Below are positions 10,690-61,157 of a stretch of DNA of 62,536 nucleotides, piece after piece. The stretch's first letter is position 1. Every line of letters begins with the position of its first letter. Source of the DNA: Candidatus Micrarchaeota archaeon (GTDB taxonomy: Archaea; Micrarchaeota; Micrarchaeia; Micrarchaeales; Micrarchaeaceae); assembly GCA_964604635.1 (NCBI GenBank), contig CAZRZO010000003.1, positions 1-62,536 on the forward strand. Direction: 5' to 3'. The notes under the pieces were generated by a model. That model was not told the origin of the DNA, searched no databases, and saw only the letters and a program-made list of their open reading frames with translations. Made by a program: the position numbers and the translations under genes.

Positions 10690-10801
10690 TGCCACAGGTC
10701 GGATTTGAACCGACGACATCCCGGTTTCTGTCTGAAACTTTATTAAGTTTTTGTCAAAATAATTACTTCAGCCGGACGCTCTCCCACTGAGCTACTGCAG
10801 C
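10690..10801 (-). tRNA. tRNA-Phe (GAA) with ~39-nt intron at canonical 37/38 position
   Basis: Acceptor GCTGCAG/CTGTGGC, D arm TAGCTCAGTGGGAGAGC, anticodon loop CTGAAG^A. The intron contains TTTCAG, complementary to the anticodon region. T arm GTCGGTTCAAATCCGAC. Confidence 0.88.
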
Positions 10802-17416: not shown

Positions 17417-17521
17417 GCGGGAGTGGCAGAGTTTGGTCAAATGCGCAGGACTGAGGTGCTAAAATTTGCTTAGAACTTCTGTGTCTTAGAGACTGCGTGA
17501 GTTCGAATCTCACCTCCCGCA
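17417..17521 (+). tRNA. tRNA-Leu (GAG), class II, with ~19-nt intron at 37/38
   Basis: Acceptor GCGGGAG/CTCCCGC, anticodon stem CAGGA/TTCTG, loop CTGAGG^C. The intron contains CTTAG, which pairs with the anticodon region. Long variable arm GTCTtagAGAC, T arm GTGAGTTCGAATCTCAC. Confidence 0.85.
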
Positions 17522-25367: not shown

Positions 25368-25937
25368 TTATTTCTGTCCAAATATTAAATAACCTGTGTG
25401 CCAAATTCCTTTTGTTGAAGGTCTTACTCCAACTTTTCTAACAAGTATATCTCGCATTATATTTTCAATACATATAATGTTTTTAAATTTATATTTTTCA
25501 AGTTTATTAAAAAATTTTTTTAATTGTTCCATATGTAAAACATAACCAACAATATATCCATTATCTTTTAATGCTTTATAAGCATGTCTAACCACTTTTT
25601 CAGAATTTGGTAAGTCTAATGTAATTACATCAACATTTTTTTCAAATATTTTTTTTGTGATATCATTATTTCTTATTATTAAATTTTCTAAATTTTCGAT
25701 TTTTTTGTTGTGCTCTGCAATTTTAATAAATTCTTCTTTAATTTCATAACTATATACTTGTTTACATATTTTTGCTAAACTTATTGAAAGCCATCCACTC
25801 CCAGTTCCTGCATCTATACAAATACTATTTTTATTAACATTTGCATATGTTATTATTATCCCAATATCTTTTGGTAATATTACTTGAGGTCCTCTTTTTA
25901 ATTTTTTATAGTGTGATGGAATAAACATATTTTTCAT
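25368..25937 (-). CDS. trmI: tRNA (adenine-N1)-methyltransferase TrmI/Gcd14 family
   Basis: PQVILPKDIG.., DAGTGSGWLS (SAM motif I), DVITLDLPN, C-terminal RPSTKGIWHTGYLIFGQK. Confidence 0.7.
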   Translation of the reverse strand: MKNMFIPSHYKKLKRGPQVILPKDIGIIITYANVNKNSICIDAGTGSGWLSISLAKICKQVYSYEIKEEFIKIAEHNKKIENLENLIIRNNDITKKIFEKNVDVITLDLPNSEKVVRHAYKALKDNGYIVGYVLHMEQLKKFFNKLEKYKFKNIICIENIMRDILVRKVGVRPSTKGIWHTGYLIFGQK

Positions 25938-32122: not shown

Positions 32123-32920
32123 ATGGAAAAATTATTATTTAAAAAATCTGAATTAAAAAAATATAAAATAGAATTAGCTGATGCTCATTGCCATTTAAAT
32201 CTTTTAGAGAATAATAATTTTAAAGAATTTATTTCCTATGGTATTTTAACATTAATAACAAATGGTATTGATACTAAGTCAAATATTCAAACATTAGATT
32301 TAAGTGATAATAAACACATTTTTCCAGCATTAGGAATAGATCCATTAACTGCATTAACAATCAATAATACTGAATTAGATTTTAATATTAAATTAATAAA
32401 GGAAAATGCAAATAAAATAGTTAGTATTGGTGAAATAGGTTTAGATTTTAAAATAGCTGAAACAAATGAAGCAAAAAACAAACAAAAACAAGTATTTGAG
32501 AAAATGCTTAATCTGGCTAATAAATTAAATTTGCCTGTTTCAATTCATTCTCGAAATTCAATTGATGAAGTAATTAAAATATTAAAATATAAAAAACTTA
32601 AAAAAGTTCATTTCCATTTTTTTGAAGGTGATTTAAACCATTTAAATTATATAATTCAAAATAATTATTTAATTTCAATACCACCATTAATTTCAAGTAA
32701 AAAAATCAAAATTATAAAATCAATTCCAATACAAAACTTAATGGTTGAAAGTGATGCACCTGTAGCTGGTATTACACCAATAGATATAGAAAGAACAATA
32801 AAAAAGATAGCAGAGATAAAAATACTTGAATTTGAAAAAACAGCAGAAATAATTACAAATACTACAAAAATGTTTTTTAATATTAAAAATAAAATCAATT
32901 TAAATATTATGCGTAAATAA
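32123..32920 (+). CDS. tatD: TatD family metal-dependent hydrolase
   Basis: ADAHCHL, IGEIGLD, SIHSR, HFHFF, VESDAP motif series. Confidence 0.88.
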   Translation: MEKLLFKKSELKKYKIELADAHCHLNLLENNNFKEFISYGILTLITNGIDTKSNIQTLDLSDNKHIFPALGIDPLTALTINNTELDFNIKLIKENANKIVSIGEIGLDFKIAETNEAKNKQKQVFEKMLNLANKLNLPVSIHSRNSIDEVIKILKYKKLKKVHFHFFEGDLNHLNYIIQNNYLISIPPLISSKKIKIIKSIPIQNLMVESDAPVAGITPIDIERTIKKIAEIKILEFEKTAEIITNTTKMFFNIKNKINLNIMRK

Positions 32921-32934
32921 TAATATATTAATAA

Positions 32935-33058
32935 GGGCTCGTAGCTCAGCTTGGATAGAGCAATAGCCTTCTAAGCTAAAGGTCGCGGGTTCAAAATAAA
33001 TTTTTAAGAAATTCAATACCAATAACTTAAAAATTAAATGAAAATCCCGCCGAGCCCG
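32935..33058 (+). tRNA. tRNA-Arg (UCU) with 49-nt intron inside the T-loop
   Basis: Acceptor GGGCTCG/CGAGCCC, D arm GCTCAGCTTGGATAGAGC, anticodon loop CTTCTAA. The T stem GCGGG/CCCGC encloses 56 nt that begin TTCAAA and end TGAAAAT. Confidence 0.8.
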
Positions 33059-33120
33059 TTTATTTTTATATAAATTATTAATTAATATTAATATTAATAA
33101 TTTTTTCGTTCTATAATACT

Positions 33121-33180
33121 ATTTATATGATGAGATTTTTATTCTGATTTTAGTGATGATGATCTTGAGTGCTGATAAAT
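33121..33180 (+). ncRNA. candidate C/D-box sRNA overlapping the 5' end of the histone-fold gene
   Basis: ATTTA stem - ATGATGA (C, 33127-33133) - 10 nt - CTGA (D', 33144-33147) - 6 nt - TGATGA (C', 33154-33159) - 12 nt - CTGA (D, 33172-33175) - TAAAT stem. Confidence 0.3.
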
Positions 33181-33392
33181 TACAAATAATATCAAAAGTG
33201 TCAATAAAAAAACTATTGAAAAATAAAAAAGACATAGTCTTAAGTGATAAAGCAATAGATGAAATTATTAAGATACTAGAAAATAAAGCAAAAACTATTT
33301 CAAAATATGCTGTTAATAGGGCTAAAATAAAAAATAGAACAATGATATTGAAAGAGGATATTGAGTCTTATTTACTCGAAGTTGGTGATTAA
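33153..33392 (+). CDS. histone-fold protein (archaeal histone-like)
   Basis: About 75 aa. VLSDKAIDEIIKILENKAKTISKYAVNRAKIKNRTMILKEDIESY fits the helix-loop-helix-loop-helix pattern of archaeal histones. The start is ambiguous (GTG 33153, ATG 33156/33159, TTG 33165). Confidence 0.55.
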   Translation: MMMILSADKLQIISKVSIKKLLKNKKDIVLSDKAIDEIIKILENKAKTISKYAVNRAKIKNRTMILKEDIESYLLEVGD

Positions 33393-33914
33393 ATTAAATT
33401 AGCAATAGCTAAATTAGAAGATAAATTCAGAGTTGATTATATTGAAAACAATATTGAAAAAACCAAAATATTTAAAAAAGTAGATAACAATGGTCTTGAA
33501 ATAACATTTGACAATGAAGGTGGGGTTTTAGATATACATTTTTTTAGTAATCAAACAATTGAATCAATATTTAAAAGATTTTTAAATACTTTTGATACAG
33601 AAGAACTAGAACAAATTAAAAAAGATTATAAAGAATTAAAATTAGAAAAACACTGCCCTAAATGTAATTCAAGATCTCTAAAAATAAAAAAGAATCAAAT
33701 CAAAATAGTTCCAATTTATGAATGTAAAGAATGCAATGAAATAAGCTATTATTTAACTACTAATTATCTTAAATTTCTTGTTTACACAAATAAAAATTTA
33801 TTTGAAGATAATGAATTACAAGAGTTAGAATGCAATGAACAAAAATTTATTAATGAATTAAAAGAATATATATCAAGAATATTCGCTACTAAAAAAATAA
33901 GCAGAATAAAATAA
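33393..33914 (+). CDS. zinc-ribbon protein (173 codons) lacking any ATG/GTG/TTG start; proposed ATT start
   Basis: Absent from the ORF track. A 173-codon open frame in about 75 percent AT DNA, with CPKC..(17 aa)..CKEC. It is preceded by GGTGAT (33384-33389), then the TAA stop of the upstream gene as a 3-nt spacer, then ATT. Confidence 0.6.
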   Translation: MKLAIAKLEDKFRVDYIENNIEKTKIFKKVDNNGLEITFDNEGGVLDIHFFSNQTIESIFKRFLNTFDTEELEQIKKDYKELKLEKHCPKCNSRSLKIKKNQIKIVPIYECKECNEISYYLTTNYLKFLVYTNKNLFEDNELQELECNEQKFINELKEYISRIFATKKISRIK

Positions 33915-34017
33915 ATACAAATATATTAATTTAAAAGATAAAAATTATATTAAATTGATAAATATTTAAATTTAATTATTTAGATATTATATATAATTTA
34001 AATTTATAGGCGTTATT

Positions 34018-34260
34018 ATGACGATATTATTATCTAATTTATATGGAAAAGAAATTATAACAACAGCTGGTAAAAAATTAGGCAAAGTTGAAGATTTAAT
34101 TCTTGATTTTGAACAAGGAACAGTGCATAGTTTATTGTTAATAAAAATAGATAATATAATAAAAAGTACTAAAACTTCTAATATAATATCTAAAAATAGT
34201 GTACAATATACACGAGTAAAGAATATTTCAGAAACAATTATTGTGACTGCAAATAGATAA
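34018..34260 (+). CDS. PRC-barrel domain protein
   Basis: LYGKEIITTAGKKLGKVEDLILDFEQGTVHSLLL is a typical PRC-barrel start; 80 aa. Confidence 0.65.
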   Translation: MTILLSNLYGKEIITTAGKKLGKVEDLILDFEQGTVHSLLLIKIDNIIKSTKTSNIISKNSVQYTRVKNISETIIVTANR

Positions 34261-34303
34261 TTATTACTTTGTAATTTTATTTCTAAAACTCTATTGATTG
34301 TTG

Positions 34304-35719
34304 CTAATTTAGTGTTCTATCAATATATTTTAAAGTATCTGTTGTTCCAAATTTATTTGGTGTTCCTGATAAAATTATAAATTTATTTATTTTATTTTTA
34401 ATTGCAATTTCATTCACATTTTTTATCATTTGGTCTATTGTACTGTATTTTTTTATTGGGTATGATCTAATTCCATATACTATTGCCATTTTATTTCTTA
34501 TTTTTTTAGAATTTGTTAAAGCAATAATGTCTAAAGAAGGTTTTAAAGAAGCTACTATTTTTGCTGTTGTACTTGTTTGAGTTGGTATAAATACACAATC
34601 TGTTTTAAAATTATATGCGAGATTAATTGCTGCAAAACCAAGTGCTTGATTTATTTTATTAATTTTAAAATTATTTTCATTTATTCTATTAATCCTATTC
34701 TCAGTTTTAATGAAATTTTCAGTACTTTCAATTATCTCTGTTAATACTTTCAATGTTTCTATTGGATATTGTCCAACAGCTGTTTCATTGCTTAATAATA
34801 CACAATCTGATTTATCAAGAATATTATTTGCTATATCATTTGCTTCTGCTCTAGTTGGAAAAGAATTATTAACCATACTACTTAATAACTGTGTTGCAAT
34901 TATAATTGGTTTTTGATAGTCATGGCATTTTTTAATAAGATACTGTTGAACGATTGGTAATTTTGCAATACCAACATGTAATCCAAGGTCACCTCTTGCA
35001 ACCATTATTCCATCAGATTTATCTATAATTCCATCAATATTACTTACTGCTTTTTTTGTTTCTATTTTAGAAATAATTTCAATGTCTTTTGTTATTTTTC
35101 TAATTTTATCAATATTACCCCCTGATTTTACAAATGAAATTGCAATAAAATCAAAATTATTTTTAACAGCAAATTTTAAAAAGTCCAAATCTTTTTCAGT
35201 TGGTGGTTCTAAACTAACTTCAGAACCAAATACACTAATTCCTTTTCCTATTTTTATTTTATTATCTCCAAGTGATTCTGCAATTATTTTCTTATTAAAA
35301 ATATCTTTAACTAAAAATTTTAATTCGCCATCACCATAAAATATTATATCATTTTTTTTAATATCTTTAAAAAGATTATAATCTAAATAAATATTTTTTT
35401 CCTTCAAATTATTTCTTTCTTTTTGGTATCCTTTATAAACTATATTTATTAAGTCTCCTTTTTTTACATTATCTACATTTTCTAATTCTTTAATTCTTAT
35501 TTTTGGACCTGCCAAATCTCCTAAAATTGCAACTTCTTTTTTTAATTCTTTTGAAAATTTATTTATTTTATCAATAGTTTCAATTACTTCTGATTTAAGA
35601 GCATGCGAAAAATTAAATCTTATTACATCTGCGTATTTAATAGCATTTTTTAATACTGCGTTAGATTTTAGTGCTGGTCCATTTGTCACAATTATTTTTG
35701 TTTTAATCATTATTATCAC
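34304..35719 (-). CDS. pyk: pyruvate kinase
   Basis: KIIVTNGPA, NFSHA, GDLAGPKIR, MVARGDLG, ATQLLSSM, ANDIANNILDKSDCVLLSNETAVGQYP motifs. Confidence 0.92.
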   Translation of the reverse strand: MIIMIKTKIIVTNGPALKSNAVLKNAIKYADVIRFNFSHALKSEVIETIDKINKFSKELKKEVAILGDLAGPKIRIKELENVDNVKKGDLINIVYKGYQKERNNLKEKNIYLDYNLFKDIKKNDIIFYGDGELKFLVKDIFNKKIIAESLGDNKIKIGKGISVFGSEVSLEPPTEKDLDFLKFAVKNNFDFIAISFVKSGGNIDKIRKITKDIEIISKIETKKAVSNIDGIIDKSDGIMVARGDLGLHVGIAKLPIVQQYLIKKCHDYQKPIIIATQLLSSMVNNSFPTRAEANDIANNILDKSDCVLLSNETAVGQYPIETLKVLTEIIESTENFIKTENRINRINENNFKINKINQALGFAAINLAYNFKTDCVFIPTQTSTTAKIVASLKPSLDIIALTNSKKIRNKMAIVYGIRSYPIKKYSTIDQMIKNVNEIAIKNKINKFIILSGTPNKFGTTDTLKYIDRTLN

Positions 35720-39953: not shown

Positions 39954-40224
39954 ATTATTTAATACTTATGAAAAATTCATTGAAAAACAAATAATATGTA
40001 TAATTTAAAAAAATTGTATACATTATAAACTTGTTTGTTATAGTTCTAATTATTTTAAAATTTATGGTTTTATTATTGATTATTATGATAATTTCAGTTT
40101 TGTACTTATATTTTTAAAATTAGTATTATTTATTCAATAAAGTTTTGAATATTATATTGACTTACAAAAACCTTGAAAATCTTTAAATTAAAATTAAGTT
40201 ATAAACATAATTTTTTGTTGAAAA

Positions 40225-40299
40225 TGGGCCTGGCGAGATTTGAACTCGCGACCTACGGCTTATAAGACCGGCGCTCTAACCAGGCTGAGCTACAAGCCC
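40225..40299 (-). tRNA. tRNA-Ile (UAU)
   Basis: Acceptor GGGCTTG/CAGGCCC, D arm GCTCAGCCTGGTTAGAGC, anticodon loop CTTATAA (anticodon TAT), T arm GCGAGTTCAAATCTCGC. No intron. Confidence 0.85.
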
Positions 40300-40361
40300 A
40301 TTATTTTTAATAAAAGCTTAAAATCATTAAATAAACAAAAAATTTACAAATATAAATTTAA

Positions 40362-43300
40362 TTAAGGCATTGTTAAATTATTATGGATCCAAAATGGTTT
40401 TGTTGGTGTATTTGGTAAAGTTCCTGTAAAGTTATTTAACTTAAGAATTCTTAATGGTAATGTATAATTTATTAAATTAATACCATTTGTATATGTATTT
40501 GAAATATTTGGCCAAACTTCTTTAAATCCATTTAATTTCCCATAAAAAAATCCTTTATAGAAATTAGAATTATAAAAGTATGATGGTGCATTTTCAACTG
40601 TATTATTTGGACCATTTGGTGTGTAAATTACTAATTCACTCACATAATCTTGGTTATTAATTGGAATTATGCCTTGATATGTTATTCTAGGATCATTAAA
40701 CGAAACAAATGCATTTAATTTTTGTTTTGTTGATGAATATAATCTTAATGCGTTATTTTTATTTGGTTTTGAATTAATACAAACAGTATGATTTTCTAAT
40801 GAATTATTTACTACTAAATATGATTTAATAAATAAATCAGTATTATTTGAAAAAGAACAATAATTATCAATATTTTGTTTGCTTGAATTTGGAATAATTG
40901 CTGATAATGGAATTAATGCATATTCTGGATCATGTGTTATTTCACATTGTGAATGACCTAAAGCATATGGAACTGGTGGATTTTGTGAATGTCCTTCTGC
41001 AATTGCAAATGCTTTTGATGTAGCATTTATATTAATACAAGCTAAGAAGTCTAATGCACCCCATTTTGGTATTAATCCCCCATCAAATATTATGTATTCT
41101 GTTTGATTTGTATTCATAAAATTAATTAATTTTGATTCATTATAACCATATATTGGTCCAAGTACATAATTTGCAGCAGCACTATAATCTTCTTTTGAAA
41201 CTGAGTTATCTCCTCTTAATACTGCATTACTATTTCCAAACCAGTTAATCCAGTCACCATAATCCCACCATGATAAAATTCTAGGTCCATAAGGTCCAAT
41301 ATTCTGTTTCATCCATTGTGTTGCACTTAACCAATAATAAGGTACTTGATTACAAAATGCGTCTGAACCAATAAGATTTCCAGAACTTCTAAATGTACTG
41401 CATTCCTGAGAAATATTAGAATTAGTATTATAATGTACAATTACTGCTTGAATTGATTGTATCATTGATTTACTTTCACCAAAAATAAAGGTTCCTATAC
41501 TAATAACAGAAGTAATTTCAATTAATATAATAATTATTATTAATACAATAAACACATTTCTTTGATTTTTAGTACTTATTATTTTTTTATTAAATACTAG
41601 ATAAAATAAGAATATTAATGCTAAAATTGAAGAAATAAAGAACAATGCAATTGCAAAAACTGAAAATGCAAATGTTTTATTATTTAAATAAACAGATTTT
41701 AATGCTGATTTTATATCTAAGTTTTTAAATTCAGTAAAATTTTTACTTTTTAATACTAATATTTCTCCTATTAAAATACCAATTATCATTACATATGCAA
41801 CGCTTAAATGGGGAATATATTTAACTTCTGATAATCCTGCAAATAATAAAGGAAATAAAATTACAAGATATAAAACTCCAACTTTATCTCTTCTAAATAT
41901 AATACTTATTAATATCAATAAGACTCCAATAATAATTACTGTAAAAAATAACAATGAAAAATTAAAAAGTCCAATAGCAATAATTCCAAATCCATTGCTA
42001 GCAAAATTAAATCTTAATCCTGTTGGAATGAATTCCTGAACAGTCATAAATAAAGGTGTTGAAGGTGTTGTAAATTTAGCACTTAAATTAAGATAATCAT
42101 GAATTGGCTTTCCAATTGGGGTAAATAATATAATTAAACTTAAAATAATTACAATAAATACAAAAAATAATAAATAAGATTTAAAGTCAAGTTTTTTAAA
42201 TAATATTTTATATTTATAAAGTATTTTTGGAAAATATTCTAATATTGCAATAATTAATAATGCAAATAAAGGTCCACTTAATGTTATTGGAATTCCTAAT
42301 ACATTTGGGATTCGGCCACTAAGAGTTGCATGATATTGATGATAAATTACTAGAAAAATTGCAATAATACTAATTACTATTGCATTCATTTTATAGAAAT
42401 TTATATCCCAATCTCTTCTTAAGATATTTATTATCCCTTGAATTAAAATATATAATGTAAGTACTCCTGCATCAACAGTATAATAATGTGCTCCTAAAAA
42501 TGTTGAAGCAAATGCAATACCAGCTAAAATAGCAAATCTATGATTTTTCATATTTTTTACTGCTAGCATATATGTTGCAAAGAAAAAGAATAAAGAAAAT
42601 ATACCCCATGGTTCTAATAATTGTTCTCCAGCAACAAATGTTGTAAATAAAACAGGAATTGTTGCGATTAATCCAGCACTTATTAATCCAACTTTCTCAT
42701 CATATTGTTTATATATTAATAAAAATATCACAAAAACTAATAATGCTGCAACTAAAGGTGGATATACACTACTCACTTTGCTCATTAATGCTGTATTAAA
42801 TGTTGAATAATGTGTAAATATATTCATTAAACTATACCAATATGCTTCTAAATAAGGTATTATTGGTTGTATTCTCAATACAGTTCCTTGTGCAACAACA
42901 GGCCATGCAGAGGGTGAATATAATAATTGATATCCATATGTTAAGATTGATTGAGTATTAATCATATCAAAATAAGGATCAAATTCAAAATAAGTGGATG
43001 AAGTACCTAATCCAATTATTCTTGTTATAAATACAATAAGCATTAATACAAATAAAATTCCAAATGCAATTTTTGTAATATCTCTTATTTTACTTTTCAA
43101 AGGTTTGTTATTTTTTAAATTATTCAATAATATTTCTTCTTCTTTTTTATGCATTTCTATTAATTGATTTTCTTCTTTTTTATGCATTTCAATAATTTTT
43201 TGTTTTTCTTCAATTGACAATTCTGAAATGTTCTGTAATTCATTTATTTGTTTTAATTTAAGATTCTTTTCTTCTTCAATATGGTCTTTTAGTATATTTT

Positions 43301-43712
43301 CTGCTTTTTGAAATTGTTTTAATTCTTGTCTTAATTCATTTATATCTAATTCATATTCATTTTTTAATTCTTGTCGTTCTTCTTTTTCTTTAATAATAAA
43401 GAAATCCGAGAACACTTTTTTTGTTATAATTCCTTGTTGTATACATAATATAAATCCAATTATTGAAAGAATAAGTGCATTTAGTTCAAATAACCCTAAT
43501 GAAAACGAAAAAAAATGAATATAATTAATAAAATAAGATTCAATCCAAGTTAAAGTTGCTGGTGCAATAAGTCCAAAAATAAAACCAATTACCCCAATTT
43601 CAAATAATCTTAAATCTGTTTTTTTTAAAAGTGCTAAAGCTAAAAGAAATCCTGGAATAAATAGTGATAAAAATGCAATAATACTTGCAATAATTGTTCC
43701 AATAATTATCAT
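40362..43712 (-). CDS. aglB: oligosaccharyltransferase AglB (STT3 family) with N-terminal 3-TM + coiled-coil extension
   Basis: WWDYGDW motif (SWWDYGDWINW), EFDPYFD first-loop motif, more than 13 TM, large C-terminal soluble domain. Confidence 0.9.
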   Translation of the reverse strand: MIIIGTIIASIIAFLSLFIPGFLLALALLKKTDLRLFEIGVIGFIFGLIAPATLTWIESYFINYIHFFSFSLGLFELNALILSIIGFILCIQQGIITKKVFSDFFIIKEKEERQELKNEYELDINELRQELKQFQKAENILKDHIEEEKNLKLKQINELQNISELSIEEKQKIIEMHKKEENQLIEMHKKEEEILLNNLKNNKPLKSKIRDITKIAFGILFVLMLIVFITRIIGLGTSSTYFEFDPYFDMINTQSILTYGYQLLYSPSAWPVVAQGTVLRIQPIIPYLEAYWYSLMNIFTHYSTFNTALMSKVSSVYPPLVAALLVFVIFLLIYKQYDEKVGLISAGLIATIPVLFTTFVAGEQLLEPWGIFSLFFFFATYMLAVKNMKNHRFAILAGIAFASTFLGAHYYTVDAGVLTLYILIQGIINILRRDWDINFYKMNAIVISIIAIFLVIYHQYHATLSGRIPNVLGIPITLSGPLFALLIIAILEYFPKILYKYKILFKKLDFKSYLLFFVFIVIILSLIILFTPIGKPIHDYLNLSAKFTTPSTPLFMTVQEFIPTGLRFNFASNGFGIIAIGLFNFSLLFFTVIIIGVLLILISIIFRRDKVGVLYLVILFPLLFAGLSEVKYIPHLSVAYVMIIGILIGEILVLKSKNFTEFKNLDIKSALKSVYLNNKTFAFSVFAIALFFISSILALIFLFYLVFNKKIISTKNQRNVFIVLIIIIILIEITSVISIGTFIFGESKSMIQSIQAVIVHYNTNSNISQECSTFRSSGNLIGSDAFCNQVPYYWLSATQWMKQNIGPYGPRILSWWDYGDWINWFGNSNAVLRGDNSVSKEDYSAAANYVLGPIYGYNESKLINFMNTNQTEYIIFDGGLIPKWGALDFLACININATSKAFAIAEGHSQNPPVPYALGHSQCEITHDPEYALIPLSAIIPNSSKQNIDNYCSFSNNTDLFIKSYLVVNNSLENHTVCINSKPNKNNALRLYSSTKQKLNAFVSFNDPRITYQGIIPINNQDYVSELVIYTPNGPNNTVENAPSYFYNSNFYKGFFYGKLNGFKEVWPNISNTYTNGINLINYTLPLRILKLNNFTGTLPNTPTKPFWIHNNLTMP
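43137..43190. repeat. tandem duplication inside aglB (21-nt exact core, 33-nt period)
   Basis: TTCTTCTTTTTTATGCATTTC occurs at 43137-43157 and 43170-43190. It encodes EMHKKEE twice, 11 aa apart, within the coiled-coil insert. Confidence 0.8.
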
Positions 43713-52679: not shown

Positions 52680-54395
52680 TTAAATTCTATTTGATAAATT
52701 AAATAATCCTTTAATAATTTTTGTTTTGTTTAAAACAGTATAGTTCATTATTAAATTATATGAATTAATTATACTTATTTGACTAGAAAGTCCATTACAT
52801 GAAATATTAAGTATTAAAGAATTATCAGATCCAATTGTTTTATTTATTGTTTGATTAGATTCAAAACCTGAATCATAGCAAGCAATTGTGTTTATTTTAA
52901 TACTATTATTCATTTTATTTGTAATATTTAATGAAGCAACTGAATTAAGATAATTAAAATTATAATAACTGCAATTTAATAAAGTGCTGTCTAATGAACA
53001 TTTATTAATTGTTTTCCAAGAAAAAGATGTTTGGTTAAAATTTAATCTATTAATTAAACTTTGTGCAATTCTAGAAGCATAAATTGATAAATTATTATTT
53101 ACAATTGAATAAAGACCAAGTTTATAATTTTTTGTAAATTCTGTTGAATTAACAATTGAAAAATTTAAAGTATTTAATGAAATAAAATCACTACAAACAT
53201 GTGTATTATTTTGATTAGATAAAATACCTTTGCATGTTTTATTAAAAGTAATTAATTGTTTGTTATTGTGTATTATATAATTGATGAATGTACCATATTT
53301 ACTATCAAATAATCTATAAAAACCAGAAGAATTATTATTATATGTACTAATTAAACCAATGTTTGAAACATTAGTGAATATAAATTTAGAACTATTTTTT
53401 ATAAAAACAGGATTACTAGTAAATATTGATTCAATTGAATTATAATTATTTGTTTGATAATTCTTTTTAATTATATTTAAACAAGAATTAGAATTATTTG
53501 AATTATTTTTATATGCAATAATTTTAGTCCACCCTTGCTGATAAAAATAACAAATACTTTTATTATTATCAATTTTTATAAAATTCACATTAATTTTTTT
53601 CTGATTATTTATTTCATTTTTATTATAATTTAAATTTATAGTATAATTTGTATTATAAATATTTGAAAATGTAGAAACAACAGTACTAATAAATTCAGGT
53701 TTTAAATTTCCTTGTATCCAAGTAGAATATGCTGATGTATTATTATTATATCTAATATAAAGTCCATTCAATATATTCATATGGTTTGATAAATCATAAA
53801 AAATTTTAGATAAAATAATTTGAGAAAAAACAATATTATTTAAAAAATCATTTTTATTGAAATTAATATCAATAAAAGGAATTGCAGTAATGCCTTGTTT
53901 ATATAATGAAAATGTTTCTAATGCTTGTATGTTATTATCAGGAATTGATGAGGGAATATCTAAAACGCTTTGAAGTTTTTTTACTTTAATATTAATATTA
54001 CTCTTTATTGTTGAAGTATTAGAAATAGTTCGTACTAATGAAGGATTTGCAATTATTTCAAAATTAAATATTCCTGATTTATTATAAGTATAATTTAAAG
54101 TTGTTGTAATATTTTTATAAGGTGGTAATGAAACAGTATATGATTTAATTAAACTATGATTTAAATAAAATCCCAAAACTAAATTTTTAATATAATTAGA
54201 TCCAGTATTGTTTATTTGTATTTTAAAATAAGATGTTTCAAAAGGATATAATATTGTATTTGATGAATTACTTGATAAAGATACATTTATTTTATAAACA
54301 TGGTTTGTTTTTATAATTAAGATACTACTAACAATACTAAGTATTACAATTGCTAAGATAATATAGATTATTATATTTAAATTAATTTTTTTTAT
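52680..54395 (-). CDS. Asn-rich, heavily sequon-laden surface protein with N-terminal TM/signal anchor; proposed ATA start
   Basis: The track gives a TTG start at 54176, but the frame stays open to 54419. It encodes KKINLNIIIYIILAIVILSIVSSILII, preceded by GGTGAT (54404-54399) plus AAT plus ATA (54395). More than 30 NxS/T sequons. Confidence 0.6.
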   Translation of the reverse strand: MKKINLNIIIYIILAIVILSIVSSILIIKTNHVYKINVSLSSNSSNTILYPFETSYFKIQINNTGSNYIKNLVLGFYLNHSLIKSYTVSLPPYKNITTTLNYTYNKSGIFNFEIIANPSLVRTISNTSTIKSNINIKVKKLQSVLDIPSSIPDNNIQALETFSLYKQGITAIPFIDINFNKNDFLNNIVFSQIILSKIFYDLSNHMNILNGLYIRYNNNTSAYSTWIQGNLKPEFISTVVSTFSNIYNTNYTINLNYNKNEINNQKKINVNFIKIDNNKSICYFYQQGWTKIIAYKNNSNNSNSCLNIIKKNYQTNNYNSIESIFTSNPVFIKNSSKFIFTNVSNIGLISTYNNNSSGFYRLFDSKYGTFINYIIHNNKQLITFNKTCKGILSNQNNTHVCSDFISLNTLNFSIVNSTEFTKNYKLGLYSIVNNNLSIYASRIAQSLINRLNFNQTSFSWKTINKCSLDSTLLNCSYYNFNYLNSVASLNITNKMNNSIKINTIACYDSGFESNQTINKTIGSDNSLILNISCNGLSSQISIINSYNLIMNYTVLNKTKIIKGLFNLSNRI

Positions 54396-57733: not shown

Positions 57734-57838
57734 AGTATCTATCTATAACTAACTTATAAATTTAATATAATTATATATTTATTTAATATTTTATATATTA
57801 AAAATAATAAAATATTATTTATTTTACAATTGATAAAA

Positions 57839-59170
57839 ATGCTAAATTCAAAATATATAAGAGAACATTACCAAGAATTTAAATTATCTTTAAATAAAAG
57901 GAAGTCAGATTATCCTTTAGATGAAATAATTAAATTAGATGAAGAAAATAGAAATTTAAAAACACAGATGCAACGATTTCAGGAAGAAAAAAATCAATTA
58001 AGTAAAAATATTTCAAATTTAAAAAAAGAAAATAATTCAGAAGGTTTGAACCAATTACTTGATAAAGCCACACAAATTAAAGATCAAATAGATCTAGTTG
58101 ATAAAAAATTAATAAATACTGAAACTAGGATTAATGATCTTATTTGGAATATCCCCAATATATTACATAACTCAGTTCCTTATGGTGTGTCTTCAGATAA
58201 TAATATTGAAATAAAAACATGGTTTCCAAATAATAAAAATATTAATGATTTTAATAAATTAAATATTGATAAAACCCATGAAGATATATTAATTGATTTA
58301 GATTTATTAGATACAAAAAGAGCTGCAAAAGTAGCTGGATCTAGATTTTATTATATAAAAAATGATCTTGTATTATTAGAATTATCATTAATTAGATTTG
58401 TAATTGATGAATTAAGTAAAAAAGGATTTATTCCTATTTCTCCTCCAAATATGATGCGAAAAGAATATTATAAAAGTGTTACTTCATTAGCTGATTTTGA
58501 AGAAGCACTTTATAAAATAACAGATCCTAAAGAATCTCAATCTAATCCGAATTTAGAGCAAATTAATGAAGAATTATTTTTAATATCAACATCAGAGCAT
58601 CCTATTGCAGCAATGCATAGTAATGAAGTATTTTCAGGGAATCAATTACCATTAAAATATGCTGGTATAAGTCCTTGTTTTAGAAGAGAAGCAGGATCTC
58701 ATGGAAAAGATACAAAAGGAATTTTTCGAGTTCACCAATTTTATAAAATAGAACAGTTTATTTTTTCAAGAGAAGAAGATTCAGAAATTTATTTTAATGA
58801 ATTATTAAATAATTCAGAACAGATTTTTAAAAAATTACAAATTCCTTACAGAGTTGTTAATATATGTACTGGTGATATTGGTATTGTTGCTGCTAAGAAA
58901 AATGATATAGAAGCATATATGCCAATACAAAAAGAATATAGAGAAGTTGTATCTTGTTCTAATTGTACTGATTGGCAAAGTTTAAGATTAAATATAAAAT
59001 ATGATGAAAAAAATGAAAGAAAATATGTACATACATTAAATTCAACTGGACTTGCAACAACAAGAACAATTGTTGCAATAGTTGAAAATTATTTAAATGA
59101 TGATGGATCAATATCAATTCCAGATGTCCTGATTCCTTACTTTGGAAAATCAAAAATAACAAAAAATTAA
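57839..59170 (+). CDS. serS: seryl-tRNA synthetase
   Basis: MLNSKYIRE start, N-terminal coiled-coil arm, class II motifs (FRREAGSHGKDTKGIFRVHQF, GLATTRTIVAIVEN). Confidence 0.93.
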   Translation: MLNSKYIREHYQEFKLSLNKRKSDYPLDEIIKLDEENRNLKTQMQRFQEEKNQLSKNISNLKKENNSEGLNQLLDKATQIKDQIDLVDKKLINTETRINDLIWNIPNILHNSVPYGVSSDNNIEIKTWFPNNKNINDFNKLNIDKTHEDILIDLDLLDTKRAAKVAGSRFYYIKNDLVLLELSLIRFVIDELSKKGFIPISPPNMMRKEYYKSVTSLADFEEALYKITDPKESQSNPNLEQINEELFLISTSEHPIAAMHSNEVFSGNQLPLKYAGISPCFRREAGSHGKDTKGIFRVHQFYKIEQFIFSREEDSEIYFNELLNNSEQIFKKLQIPYRVVNICTGDIGIVAAKKNDIEAYMPIQKEYREVVSCSNCTDWQSLRLNIKYDEKNERKYVHTLNSTGLATTRTIVAIVENYLNDDGSISIPDVLIPYFGKSKITKN

Positions 59171-59178
59171 ATGATAAA

Positions 59179-60384
59179 ATGAGTTTTATAAAAGATTATG
59201 AATTAAAGAAACAATTAAAGAAATTATCAGCAATACATGGTAGTGGAACAGAACTTATTAGCGTTTATATTCCAACTTATTTTGTAATTTCAAATGAAAT
59301 TAGTAAATTAAAAGATGAGCAAAATCAGTCATCAAATATTAAATCAAAATCAACTAGATCAAATGTTCAAAGCGCAATTGAAAAAATGATCCAATATATT
59401 AAATTATATAGAAATCCGCCCAAAAATGGAATAGCTGTTTTTTGTGGGAATACATCTTCAGCGCAAGCAAAATCAGACATTCAATTATTTTCAGTAGAAC
59501 CACCACAACAAATTAAAGTAAATATTTATAGATGTGATTCAGCATTTTTGCTTGGTCCTTTATATGCAATGATGGAAGCAAAAGATAGTTTTGTTTTAGT
59601 TGTACTTGATGGGCGAGAAGCAACTATTGCATTATTAAATGGAACTACTATTGAAATAGAAAAAAAATTAAGATCTTTTGCGCATGCAAAAGTAAGAAAA
59701 GGAGGTGCATCAGCAGGTAGATATGAAAGAGCAATATCTGAAAGTATAAATGATTTTTATAAAAGTGTTGCAGATAGCATAAATACTGTATTTCTAAAAC
59801 ATAATTTTAAAATTAATGGATTAGTTGTTGGAGGTCCAGGTCCAACAAAAGATAATTTTGTAAAATCTAAAAATTTAAATTATCAAATAAAAGTAATTGG
59901 TATTTTTGATACTGGTTATACTGATGAACATACTGGAATAAATGAATTACTTGAAAAAGCAAAAGACGTACTTTCTGAGCAAGAAGTTGTAAAAGAAAAA
60001 AAGATTATGGATAGATTTTTAAATGAAGTTTCAAATAATGGATTAACTGTTTTTGGTTATGAAAAAGTAAAAAATATGCTATTAAATAATAATATTATTA
60101 AACTAATTATTAGTGAAGATTTAGAACTAAATAATATAAAATATAAATGCAGTTCATGTAATGAAGAAATTAATGTAATTGAAGAAGGTAATACAAGACA
60201 AACAAGACATTCTTGTGGTGGTAGTTTAAGTATTGAATCACAAACAGATTCTATTAAAGAAATGATAGAAACTGCTGATAAAATGAATATTGAAATTGTT
60301 TTTATATCTGCTCAAACATCTTATGGCCGTGAATTTTTATTAGGTTTTCATGGAATTGCTGCAATGATAAAATACAAAGCATAA
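59179..60384 (+). CDS. prf1: peptide chain release factor aRF1 with GGA in place of GGQ
   Basis: GTELISVYIP, NIKS (SSNIKSKSTR), YRCDSAF (YxCxxxF), then KGGASAGRYER where aRF1/eRF1 have GGQSxxRFxR. The C-terminal domain has a CSSC..C insert. Confidence 0.88.
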   Translation: MSFIKDYELKKQLKKLSAIHGSGTELISVYIPTYFVISNEISKLKDEQNQSSNIKSKSTRSNVQSAIEKMIQYIKLYRNPPKNGIAVFCGNTSSAQAKSDIQLFSVEPPQQIKVNIYRCDSAFLLGPLYAMMEAKDSFVLVVLDGREATIALLNGTTIEIEKKLRSFAHAKVRKGGASAGRYERAISESINDFYKSVADSINTVFLKHNFKINGLVVGGPGPTKDNFVKSKNLNYQIKVIGIFDTGYTDEHTGINELLEKAKDVLSEQEVVKEKKIMDRFLNEVSNNGLTVFGYEKVKNMLLNNNIIKLIISEDLELNNIKYKCSSCNEEINVIEEGNTRQTRHSCGGSLSIESQTDSIKEMIETADKMNIEIVFISAQTSYGREFLLGFHGIAAMIKYKA

Positions 60385-60404: not shown

Positions 60405-61157
60405 ATGAAACTGATAAAAATGAAATTAAGTTTAAATAATTTTAAAGAAAGATTTACTAAGCAAGAAATAATAGATATTTTAATTGCAGATACAGTACTA
60501 ATTCTAGCTTTTACATTAATATTGTCAACAAAGTTTGGTGGTATTTTTTCAATATCTAGTATTATATCTAATACTAGTCTTTCTAGTTTTTTGAATAATT
60601 TCTTTATTTATTTATCTATTTCTGCATTTGTTGTTAGTATAAGTTTTATTATTCATGAATTAATGCATAAATTTGTTGCACAATATTATGGCGCAATTGC
60701 TGGTTTTAGAACATCAATAAATGGATTAATGATTACAATTGTATCTTCTTTATTTGGATTTTTAATTGGAATCCCAGGAGCAACAATGATATATGCACAG
60801 AATTTTAGCAAGAAACAAGAAGGAATTGTGTCATTAGCAGGTCCATTAACTAATTTTGCAATGTTTGGTATTTTTTTGTTTTTAAATTTTATTATTCATC
60901 CAAATCCAGAATCCTATTTAGGGCAATTAATTTATTTAACATTTTTTATAAATATTCTTCTTGCACTATATAATATGCTTCCAATTTTCCCGTTAGATGG
61001 GAGCAAAATATTTATGTGGAATAAACCTCTTTATATTTCTATGATGGCACTAATTTTTATTTTAACATGGTTCTTTATACCTAGTATATTGTATTTGATT
61101 GTTTTTATGGTAATTATTGCATTAATATTTTCATTATTATATAAACAAATTCTTTAA
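60405..61157 (+). CDS. M50 family (site-2 protease-like) membrane metalloprotease
   Basis: HELMH zinc motif in a TM helix and NMLPIFPLDGSKIF (LDG motif). Confidence 0.85.
   Translation: MKLIKMKLSLNNFKERFTKQEIIDILIADTVLILAFTLILSTKFGGIFSISSIISNTSLSSFLNNFFIYLSISAFVVSISFIIHELMHKFVAQYYGAIAGFRTSINGLMITIVSSLFGFLIGIPGATMIYAQNFSKKQEGIVSLAGPLTNFAMFGIFLFLNFIIHPNPESYLGQLIYLTFFINILLALYNMLPIFPLDGSKIFMWNKPLYISMMALIFILTWFFIPSILYLIVFMVIIALIFSLLYKQIL

Follow-up and report, generated by a model that had tools for sequence, protein, structure and literature searches.

The archaeal class-I release factor aRF1 encoded on a 62,536-nucleotide stretch of DNA from a Candidatus Micrarchaeota archaeon (contig CAZRZO010000003.1, positions 1-62,536, assembly GCA_964604635.1; the whole stretch is referred to here as the window) carries the tripeptide GGA in place of the catalytic GGQ motif. 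GGQ is the textbook motif of all class-I release factors, convergent in bacteria on the one hand and in archaea and eukaryotes on the other, and all three domains of life have dedicated enzymes that methylate its glutamine. The substitution is a real one, retained throughout a clade of Micrarchaeota and accompanied by purifying selection on the gene. Judged by sequence comparison, the window aRF1 is probably a working termination factor in a lineage that tolerates the loss of the glutamine side chain.

The aRF1 gene extends from 59179 to 60384 on the forward strand and encodes 401 amino acids between an ATG start and a TAA stop codon, an assignment based on the list of open reading frames (ORFs), Pfam, TIGR03676 and an alignment to PDB entry 4af1. 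The three-domain architecture of aRF1/eRF1 is present along the whole protein, and the Pfam domains eRF1_1, eRF1_2 and eRF1_3 were matched with 53.5, 102.5 and 65.2 bits, each above the cut-off. Moreover, the NCBIfam model TIGR03676 (aRF1_eRF1) covered residues 6-400 with 409.8 bits at a cut-off of 234.7, and the Halobacterium aRF1 (4af1) aligned to residues 5-400 with an E-value of 1.9e-76. The NIKS stop-codon recognition motif (residues 53-56; 59335-59346, forward strand) aligns to NIKS of 4af1 and eRF1, and the YxCxxxF motif, YRCDSAF in the window protein (residues 117-123; 59527-59547, forward strand), aligns to YHCDSAF of 4af1.

Nucleotides 59701-59715 read GGA GGT GCA TCA GCA and encode G175, G176, A177, S178 and A179; the GGA motif itself (DNA GGA GGT GCA, forward strand) occupies 59701-59709. 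In the residue alignment RKGGASAGRY of the window aRF1 stands opposite RKGGQSAQRF of 4af1, and yeast and human eRF1 agree. GGA was aligned to the GGQ of 4af1, 4crn and 3j5y, and the position of residue 177 is fixed by full-length alignment to these solved aRF1/eRF1 structures. No GGQ occurs elsewhere in the 401 amino acids. The Ala177 codon GCA (59707-59709, forward strand) is two transversions away from CAA or CAG. It lies within the GGQ minidomain (residues 160-200; 59656-59778, forward strand; EIEKKLRSFAHAKVRKGGASAGRYERAISESINDFYKSVAD), which is near-invariant across the GGA clade. The initial annotation of this DNA had described the protein as an aRF1 with intact NIKS and YxCxxxF motifs and with GGA for GGQ due to a GCA codon at 59707-59709. 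The domain matches, the DNA and the structure-based alignment confirm this description in every part, and the possibility that an alignment would place GGQ elsewhere in the protein has fallen away. The GGQ hallmark of aRF1/eRF1 is thus missing from the window protein and the other sequence hallmarks are present. We regard the gene as an evolutionary aRF1 orthologue, though a variant one, whose catalytic competence is presumed.

Homologues were sought among 5.8 billion proteins, and the figures given apply to the matches listed. The three closest clusters have GGA (P0001, P0002 and P0003 with 91%, 87% and 83% identity), and so do all cluster members that cover the motif. Among the next 117 homologues in these matches, 116 have GGQ and one has GGM. 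Eleven distinct GGA protein sequences were found on more than 25 contigs from NCBI, ENA, Logan and JGI, including the GenBank proteins MCL4383013.1, MCL5094940.1 and MEM3875630.1, and the exact window protein is present on five contigs. The GTDB representative metagenome-assembled genome MAS3.bin46 (JAJZMY01) encodes GGA as well. A 71-residue peptide around the motif, used as a query for more GGA proteins, returned one fragment only. The GGA clade as found so far consists of four species-level lineages, with loci L003 and L010 representing one population.

The alanine is encoded by GCA in the window, L003 and L010 and by GCT in L001 and L002, and the orthologous codon in the GGQ genes of L009, L005 and L007 is CAA or CAG. 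Since synonymous divergence (dS) reaches approximately 1.25 within the GGA group, the alanine has been kept across species- to genus-level divergence. That GCA is no single-base error had been argued from the two changes needed, and the presence of GGA in the relatives bears this out. Recoding of GCA as glutamine was considered and rejected, as the adjacent GCA codon (59713-59715) encodes the conserved alanine of the SA pair.

In a neighbour-joining tree the GGA sequences form one clade inside the Micrarchaeota, sister to a clade with GGQ (P0004, P0005 and L011-L013). Both sister clades have a common gene order consisting of Cdc6/Orc1, a small ORF, RNase P Rpp14, DUF357, seryl-tRNA synthetase (SerRS), aRF1 and an M50 peptidase. 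In the window SerRS (57830-59170, forward strand; Pfam Seryl_tRNA_N and tRNA-synt_2b) is the upstream neighbour, with a gap of 8 nt between its stop codon and the aRF1 start, and an M50-family membrane peptidase (60405-61157, forward strand; Pfam Peptidase_M50) is the downstream neighbour. SerRS lies upstream of aRF1 in the GGA loci L001 and L003 and in the GGQ sister loci L005 and L009; at the SerRS position of L002 (GGA) there is an unannotated ORF of 299 amino acids. Peptidase_M50 follows aRF1 in L003 (GGA) and in L005, L006 and L009 (GGQ). The G+C content of the GGQ sister loci is 31-45% versus 22-34% in the GGA loci, a strong difference from which we conclude that the sister loci are derived from different organisms. 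Because the GGA gene and its GGQ counterparts in the sister clade lie at one and the same SerRS-aRF1-M50 locus, the GGA gene is the aRF1 orthologue and not an additional paralogue. A paralogue with a rescue role, as suggested in the initial annotation, has lost ground through this ancestral locus and through the nesting of the gene among Micrarchaeota orthologues without a long branch.

The GGA aRF1 gene is under purifying selection, which is strongest near the motif. Whole-gene pairwise ratios of nonsynonymous to synonymous divergence (dN/dS) within the clade were 0.07-0.09 at a dS of 0.8-1.25, and 0.2 for the closest pair (window and L001). For the GGQ minidomain (residues 160-200) the ratios decreased to 0.02-0.04 at a dS of 0.6-0.9, with 0.13 for the window-L001 pair. 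Within the clade no residue differs between R165 and F193, the two glycines included. Measured against the outgroup L007, dN came to 0.256-0.269 in the GGA genes and to 0.285-0.288 in their GGQ sisters, demonstrating that there is no acceleration. Where the conservation of a column reaches 90% or more, the clade as a whole departs from it at only six positions, and none of these is a new glutamine. A relocated glutamine of the GGxSQ type was likewise rejected: the motif has no glutamine in its vicinity, and the clade has gained none of its own. Because the glycines and the loop are under strong purifying selection, docking of the loop in the peptidyl-transferase centre is presumably still required. 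A factor freed from reaching this centre would be expected to lose the loop, as in the case of Pelota (PMC2613156).

A separate observation concerns residue 126 (59554-59556), the glutamate following YxCxxxF (consensus FxxEPL; E in 93% of relatives). It is G, S, D and D in the four sequences of the GGA clade that were compared and, besides the glutamine, is the sole conserved column that became variable there.

The natural range of the motif was determined in an exhaustive search of 1.84 billion cluster representatives, which yielded 150 diverse aRF1s, 137 of them classifiable. Glutamine is absent in 23 of the 137 (W 12, M 5, F 3, S 2 and E 1), and all full-length representatives among these keep NIKS and YxCxxxF. 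Twelve of the 23 form one deep clade with W, M or F throughout, mostly followed by SQ; the others are scattered single events. Among the nearest relatives of the GGW representative P0139, 114 of 119 have GGW (84 GGWSQ and 30 GGWSA). They are annotated as aRF-1 of Aenigmatarchaeota, Aenigmarchaeota or 'Nanoarchaeota', some on contigs of 555 and 665 kb. Ordinary TGG and ATG codons specify the tryptophan and methionine, and the genes have housekeeping neighbours (e.g. GGW loci L018, 10001-11197, and L019, 10001-11215). GGM was found in a Micrarchaeota aRF1 (P0102; L017, 172-1371; codon ATG) on a single JGI contig. GGE was found in P0246 (WP_455278356.1), which carries the label [Eubacterium] cellulosolvens, although the contig is probably archaeal and the label wrong.

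Bulky residues almost always have SQ after them (GGxSQ), and by analogy with the motif of VLRF1 (PMC6514570) this suggests a shifted catalytic glutamine. The small-residue variants, GGA in the window and GGS in P0131 and P0254, one of which has an intein, are followed by SA and offer no candidate for a shifted glutamine. Within this range GGA is an independent and younger event inside the Micrarchaeota. It is apparently one case of a wider pattern, so far undescribed, of repeated replacement of the 'universal' glutamine in DPANN archaea; no report of natural GGQ variants in DPANN was found in the literature, the coverage of which was incomplete and gives no proof of novelty. Universal conservation of GGQ, assumed at the outset, therefore does not hold, given the 23 of 137 representatives without glutamine and the lack of glutamine in nearly all Aenigmatarchaeota-type aRF1s.

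The same survey revealed inteins at the motif. In 58 of the 137 representatives an intein is inserted between Q and S of GGQS, with junctions of the form GGQ/C...HN/S. Carriers include P0124-P0131, P0133-P0135, P0145 and P0159-P0162, and the insertion point corresponds to the bond between 59709 and 59710 of the window. The inserts contain the Pfam domains Intein_splicing, LAGLIDADG_3 and HTH. Mini-inteins of approximately 134 amino acids are also present, and one protein of 1452 amino acids has two matched Intein_splicing stretches. No report of an aRF1 intein was found in the literature, again with incomplete coverage and without proof of novelty.

The window has a G+C content of 22%, and its 57 long ORFs end with TAA (43), TGA (8) or TAG (6). 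Conserved genes with stops other than TAA are those for L13 (TGA), S2 (TAG) and pyruvate kinase (TAG). Because all three codons terminate ORFs, among them conserved genes for ribosomal proteins and glycolysis, the window uses the standard set of three, as the initial annotation had stated.

GGQ has been described as universal in a/eRF1 (PMC2613156; PMC6144793). The main-chain amide of the glutamine is regarded as the catalytic element; a Q-to-P exchange abolishes release and Q-to-E leaves the factor reasonably active. The side chain is thought to pack around water and to select water as the nucleophile (PMC4691834; PMC6742477). In bacterial RF2 the Q252A exchange slowed hydrolysis and left stop recognition unaffected (PMC8429421). 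According to the title of a study cited in PMC2613156, mutation of the glutamine in human eRF1 does not abolish activity. Gln187 of the Haloferax volcanii aRF1 is N5-methylated by Mtq2-Trm112, and the GGA mutant is unmethylated (PMC6144793). The expectation that substitution severely impairs release is thus only partly correct: it agrees with the non-functional Q185A variant of Drosophila eRF1, but RF2 Q252A is merely slower and the catalytic amide belongs to the backbone. In the model organisms tested, Q-to-A is chemically survivable yet costly. A candidate Mtq2 methyltransferase in the window (25371-25937, reverse strand) was rejected, as its best match is GCD14/TrmI and an NPPY motif is missing.

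These data can be combined into the following model. Glutamine would have been replaced by alanine on the stem of a small clade of very AT-rich Micrarchaeota. The N domain with NIKS and YxCxxxF would still read all three stop codons, and aRF1 would be delivered by aEF1-alpha, so that the unchanged Gly-Gly loop could enter the peptidyl-transferase centre. Hydrolysis may persist there because catalysis is contributed by the ribosome, the A76 2'-OH and the backbone of the loop, in which alanine still supplies the third-residue amide. Missing would be the glutamine side chain, with its packing around the water, its barrier to other nucleophiles and its N5-methylation by Mtq2. Release would be expected to be slower and perhaps less uniform, a cost that may be bearable for a slow-growing, genome-reduced symbiont. 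The codon probably changed from CAA via GAA to GCA and not via CCA: a glutamate intermediate is likely because Q-to-E keeps activity and Q-to-P kills release, and a natural GGE aRF1 (P0246) exists. That catalysis persists, how fast it runs and that the genome has no other release factor are suppositions of the model. Among the explanations offered in the initial annotation, tolerance of GGA by the lineage is the best supported, by the clade-wide occurrence, the synonymous GCA/GCT variation and the purifying selection around the motif.

Several points weigh against this model. Yeast and E. coli mutants of the glutamine are reportedly inviable. In vivo, Drosophila eRF1 Q185A did not rescue and was dominant-negative. 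With mtq2 deleted, Haloferax volcanii needs twice as long per generation (PMC6144793), and because loss of the methylation alone has this effect, loss of the whole side chain should have a cost, barring compensation. A compensating change in aRF1 itself was not found among the six clade-wide departures; several of them are common to the sisters or match the eRF1 state, and none is convincing. Furthermore, Q-to-A opposes the AT mutational bias of a genome with 22% G+C, so that drift fits poorly and the change hints at selection. Finally, the examined DNA covers 62.5 kb of a genome that by our estimate probably comprises several hundred kb or more, and a divergent second aRF1 may be located elsewhere.

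Such a second, canonical GGQ aRF1 might carry out release, leaving the GGA protein as a specialised stalling, rescue or recycling factor. The limited extent of visible DNA leaves room for this, since the 62.5 kb contain neither Pelota nor a second aRF1, and the failure of eRF1 Q185A in flies is in line with a GGA protein unfit for release. In addition, the aeRF1 superfamily has yielded non-releasing paralogues such as Pelota (PMC2613156). However, the gene resides at the ancestral syntenic locus as sister to GGQ orthologues, shows no rate acceleration and has acquired very few clade-specific changes. Its Gly-Gly loop is the most constrained part of the protein, and Pelota lost this loop. Side by side with a GGQ factor, a dominant-negative GGA factor would do harm. 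One aRF1 is the normal number in archaea, especially in reduced DPANN genomes, which also argues against a second copy. A search with hidden Markov models detected no second aRF1 or Pelota in the six-frame translation of the window or in the loci fetched from relatives. MAS3.bin46 has one aRF1 locus only by a peptide search, a weak result given that the query peptides were derived from the window and one of them, ESINDFYK, is common to the GGQ sisters. We consider a division of labour between two aRF1s unlikely.

Alternatively, release might be outsourced. In its general form this would mean that in the GGA clade, and perhaps in DPANN members with GGW, GGM, GGF or GGS, aRF1 only reads the stop codon and triggers splitting, and that a separate hydrolase frees the peptide; we regard this as very unlikely. 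The more specific version, in which aRF1(GGA) reads the stop codon and recruits ABCE1 for splitting and Pth2 or a VLRF1-like factor hydrolyses the peptidyl-tRNA, is slightly less probable again. Both would account for a glutamine that is absent and has no nearby substitute. Archaeal VLRF1-type hydrolases with variant GGxSQ motifs do exist (PMC6514570), and the many DPANN aRF1s without glutamine could indicate a shared alternative pathway. Outsourcing is disfavoured by the very strong purifying selection on both glycines and the entire loop. No candidate hydrolase was identified in the 62.5-kb window, and the detour would cost time and resources with each protein synthesised.

A further proposal addresses the origin of the substitution, namely that Q-to-A was driven or helped by intein pressure. 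The changed bases are positions -3 and -2 of the homing site, and the allele may be immune. The 58 inteins located exactly at this site, the splicing, LAGLIDADG_3 and HTH domains confirmed in them by Pfam and the many intein-bearing alleles on the same large branch as the window protein are consistent with such pressure, as is a change that opposes the AT bias and thereby suggests selection. On the other hand, inteins are usually near neutral, and synonymous changes could alter the site too. Intein alleles with W, M, F or S at position -1 indicate that a residue other than glutamine does not bar residence. We therefore attach only a slight probability to this scenario. Fixation driven by inteins is compatible with a functional GGA factor, as it would concern the cause of fixation. 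An assembly or consensus artefact, which the initial annotation had left to be checked, or a decaying pseudogene has practically no probability left and is refuted by eleven distinct GGA sequences from independent assemblies in four databases, by synonymous differences of the alanine codon among relatives and by reading frames that are all intact with dN/dS well below 1.

Compared with canonical aRF1/eRF1 (4af1; Aeropyrum pernix 3agk/3vmf; human 1dt9), the window protein is collinear over its full length and has the three domains, NIKS, YxCxxxF and a Gly-Gly loop followed by SxxR[YF]xR; its C terminus ends with ...IKYK at the GILRY position. It differs in the third residue of the motif, alanine, which precludes the N5-methylation that Mtq2-Trm112 places on Gln187 of Haloferax (PMC6144793). 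The laboratory mutants E. coli RF2 Q252A, Drosophila eRF1 Q185A and Haloferax volcanii aRF1 Q187A have the identical substitution at the identical position. Unlike these engineered variants, the window allele is natural, fixed in a clade and kept by selection.

Pelota/Dom34 belongs to the same superfamily, has the same overall fold and also lacks the catalytic glutamine. In contrast to the window aRF1, Pelota is devoid of the entire GGQ loop, NIKS and YxCxxxF (PMC2613156). Identity with Pelota/Dom34 was rejected, as the window protein keeps all three elements apart from the glutamine side chain and 2qi2 matches residues 209-315 only (E = 1.2e-4). VLRF1/Vms1-type factors (GGxSQ, GxuQ; Burroughs and Aravind 2019, PMC6514570) demonstrate that the aeRF1-fold loop tolerates variation around the glutamine. 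The GG[W/M/F]SQ variants of aRF1 match the GGxSQ pattern of VLRF1, whereas GGASAG of the window has no glutamine at +2 or nearby. A VLRF1-type identity was also discarded: GGASAGRY contains no glutamine, NCBIfam acVLRF1 scored 20 bits at a cut-off of 125, and the Pfam acVLRF1 match (30 bits) merely reflects overlap with the shared eRF1_2 fold. The other natural aRF1s without glutamine resemble the window protein in being orthologue-like, with intact NIKS and YxCxxxF and housekeeping neighbours. GGS-SA (P0131, P0254) comes closest to GGA-SA, and most of the others differ from it by a bulky hydrophobic residue followed by SQ.

Natural GGA and the GGW, GGM and GGF variants of DPANN provide test material for the role of the glutamine side chain and its methylation in the rate of release, the exclusion of nucleophiles and the uniformity of release across C-terminal residues. 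If the ribosome and the Gly-Gly backbone do suffice in vivo, in the GGA clade and perhaps also in DPANN members with GGW, GGM, GGF or GGS, the debate on side chain and methylation would be settled. GGA may also reveal a relaxed or rewired termination in genome-reduced symbiotic archaea. For annotation and completeness pipelines it follows that an aRF1 without GGQ should not count as broken. Apart from this, the intein hot spot at the Q-S bond of the motif is of use to intein biology.

Several other features of the window were recorded. Large ORFs with no Pfam match at E <= 0.001 are located on the reverse strand at 40362-43712 (1116 amino acids), 52680-54176 (498 amino acids) and 63-1130 (355 amino acids). 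A stretch of 1.4 kb (32920-34304) contains no long ORF in the ORF call. A weak C/D-box sRNA-like match was obtained at 33123-33178 (27 bits, below the gathering score; E = 0.004). Three tRNAs were detected by Rfam and missed by ARAGORN, at 10690-10801 (reverse strand), 17417-17521 (forward strand) and 32935-32993 (forward strand). Two of them are 105-112 nt long and probably contain introns. The third has 59 nt yet spans the whole model (33 bits) and may be unusual or partial. Finally, a tRNA-Ile with the anticodon UAU is predicted at 40224-40300 on the reverse strand (ARAGORN; Rfam 69.6 bits). It would decode AUA directly and not via a modified CAU anticodon, which fits a genome with 22% G+C.

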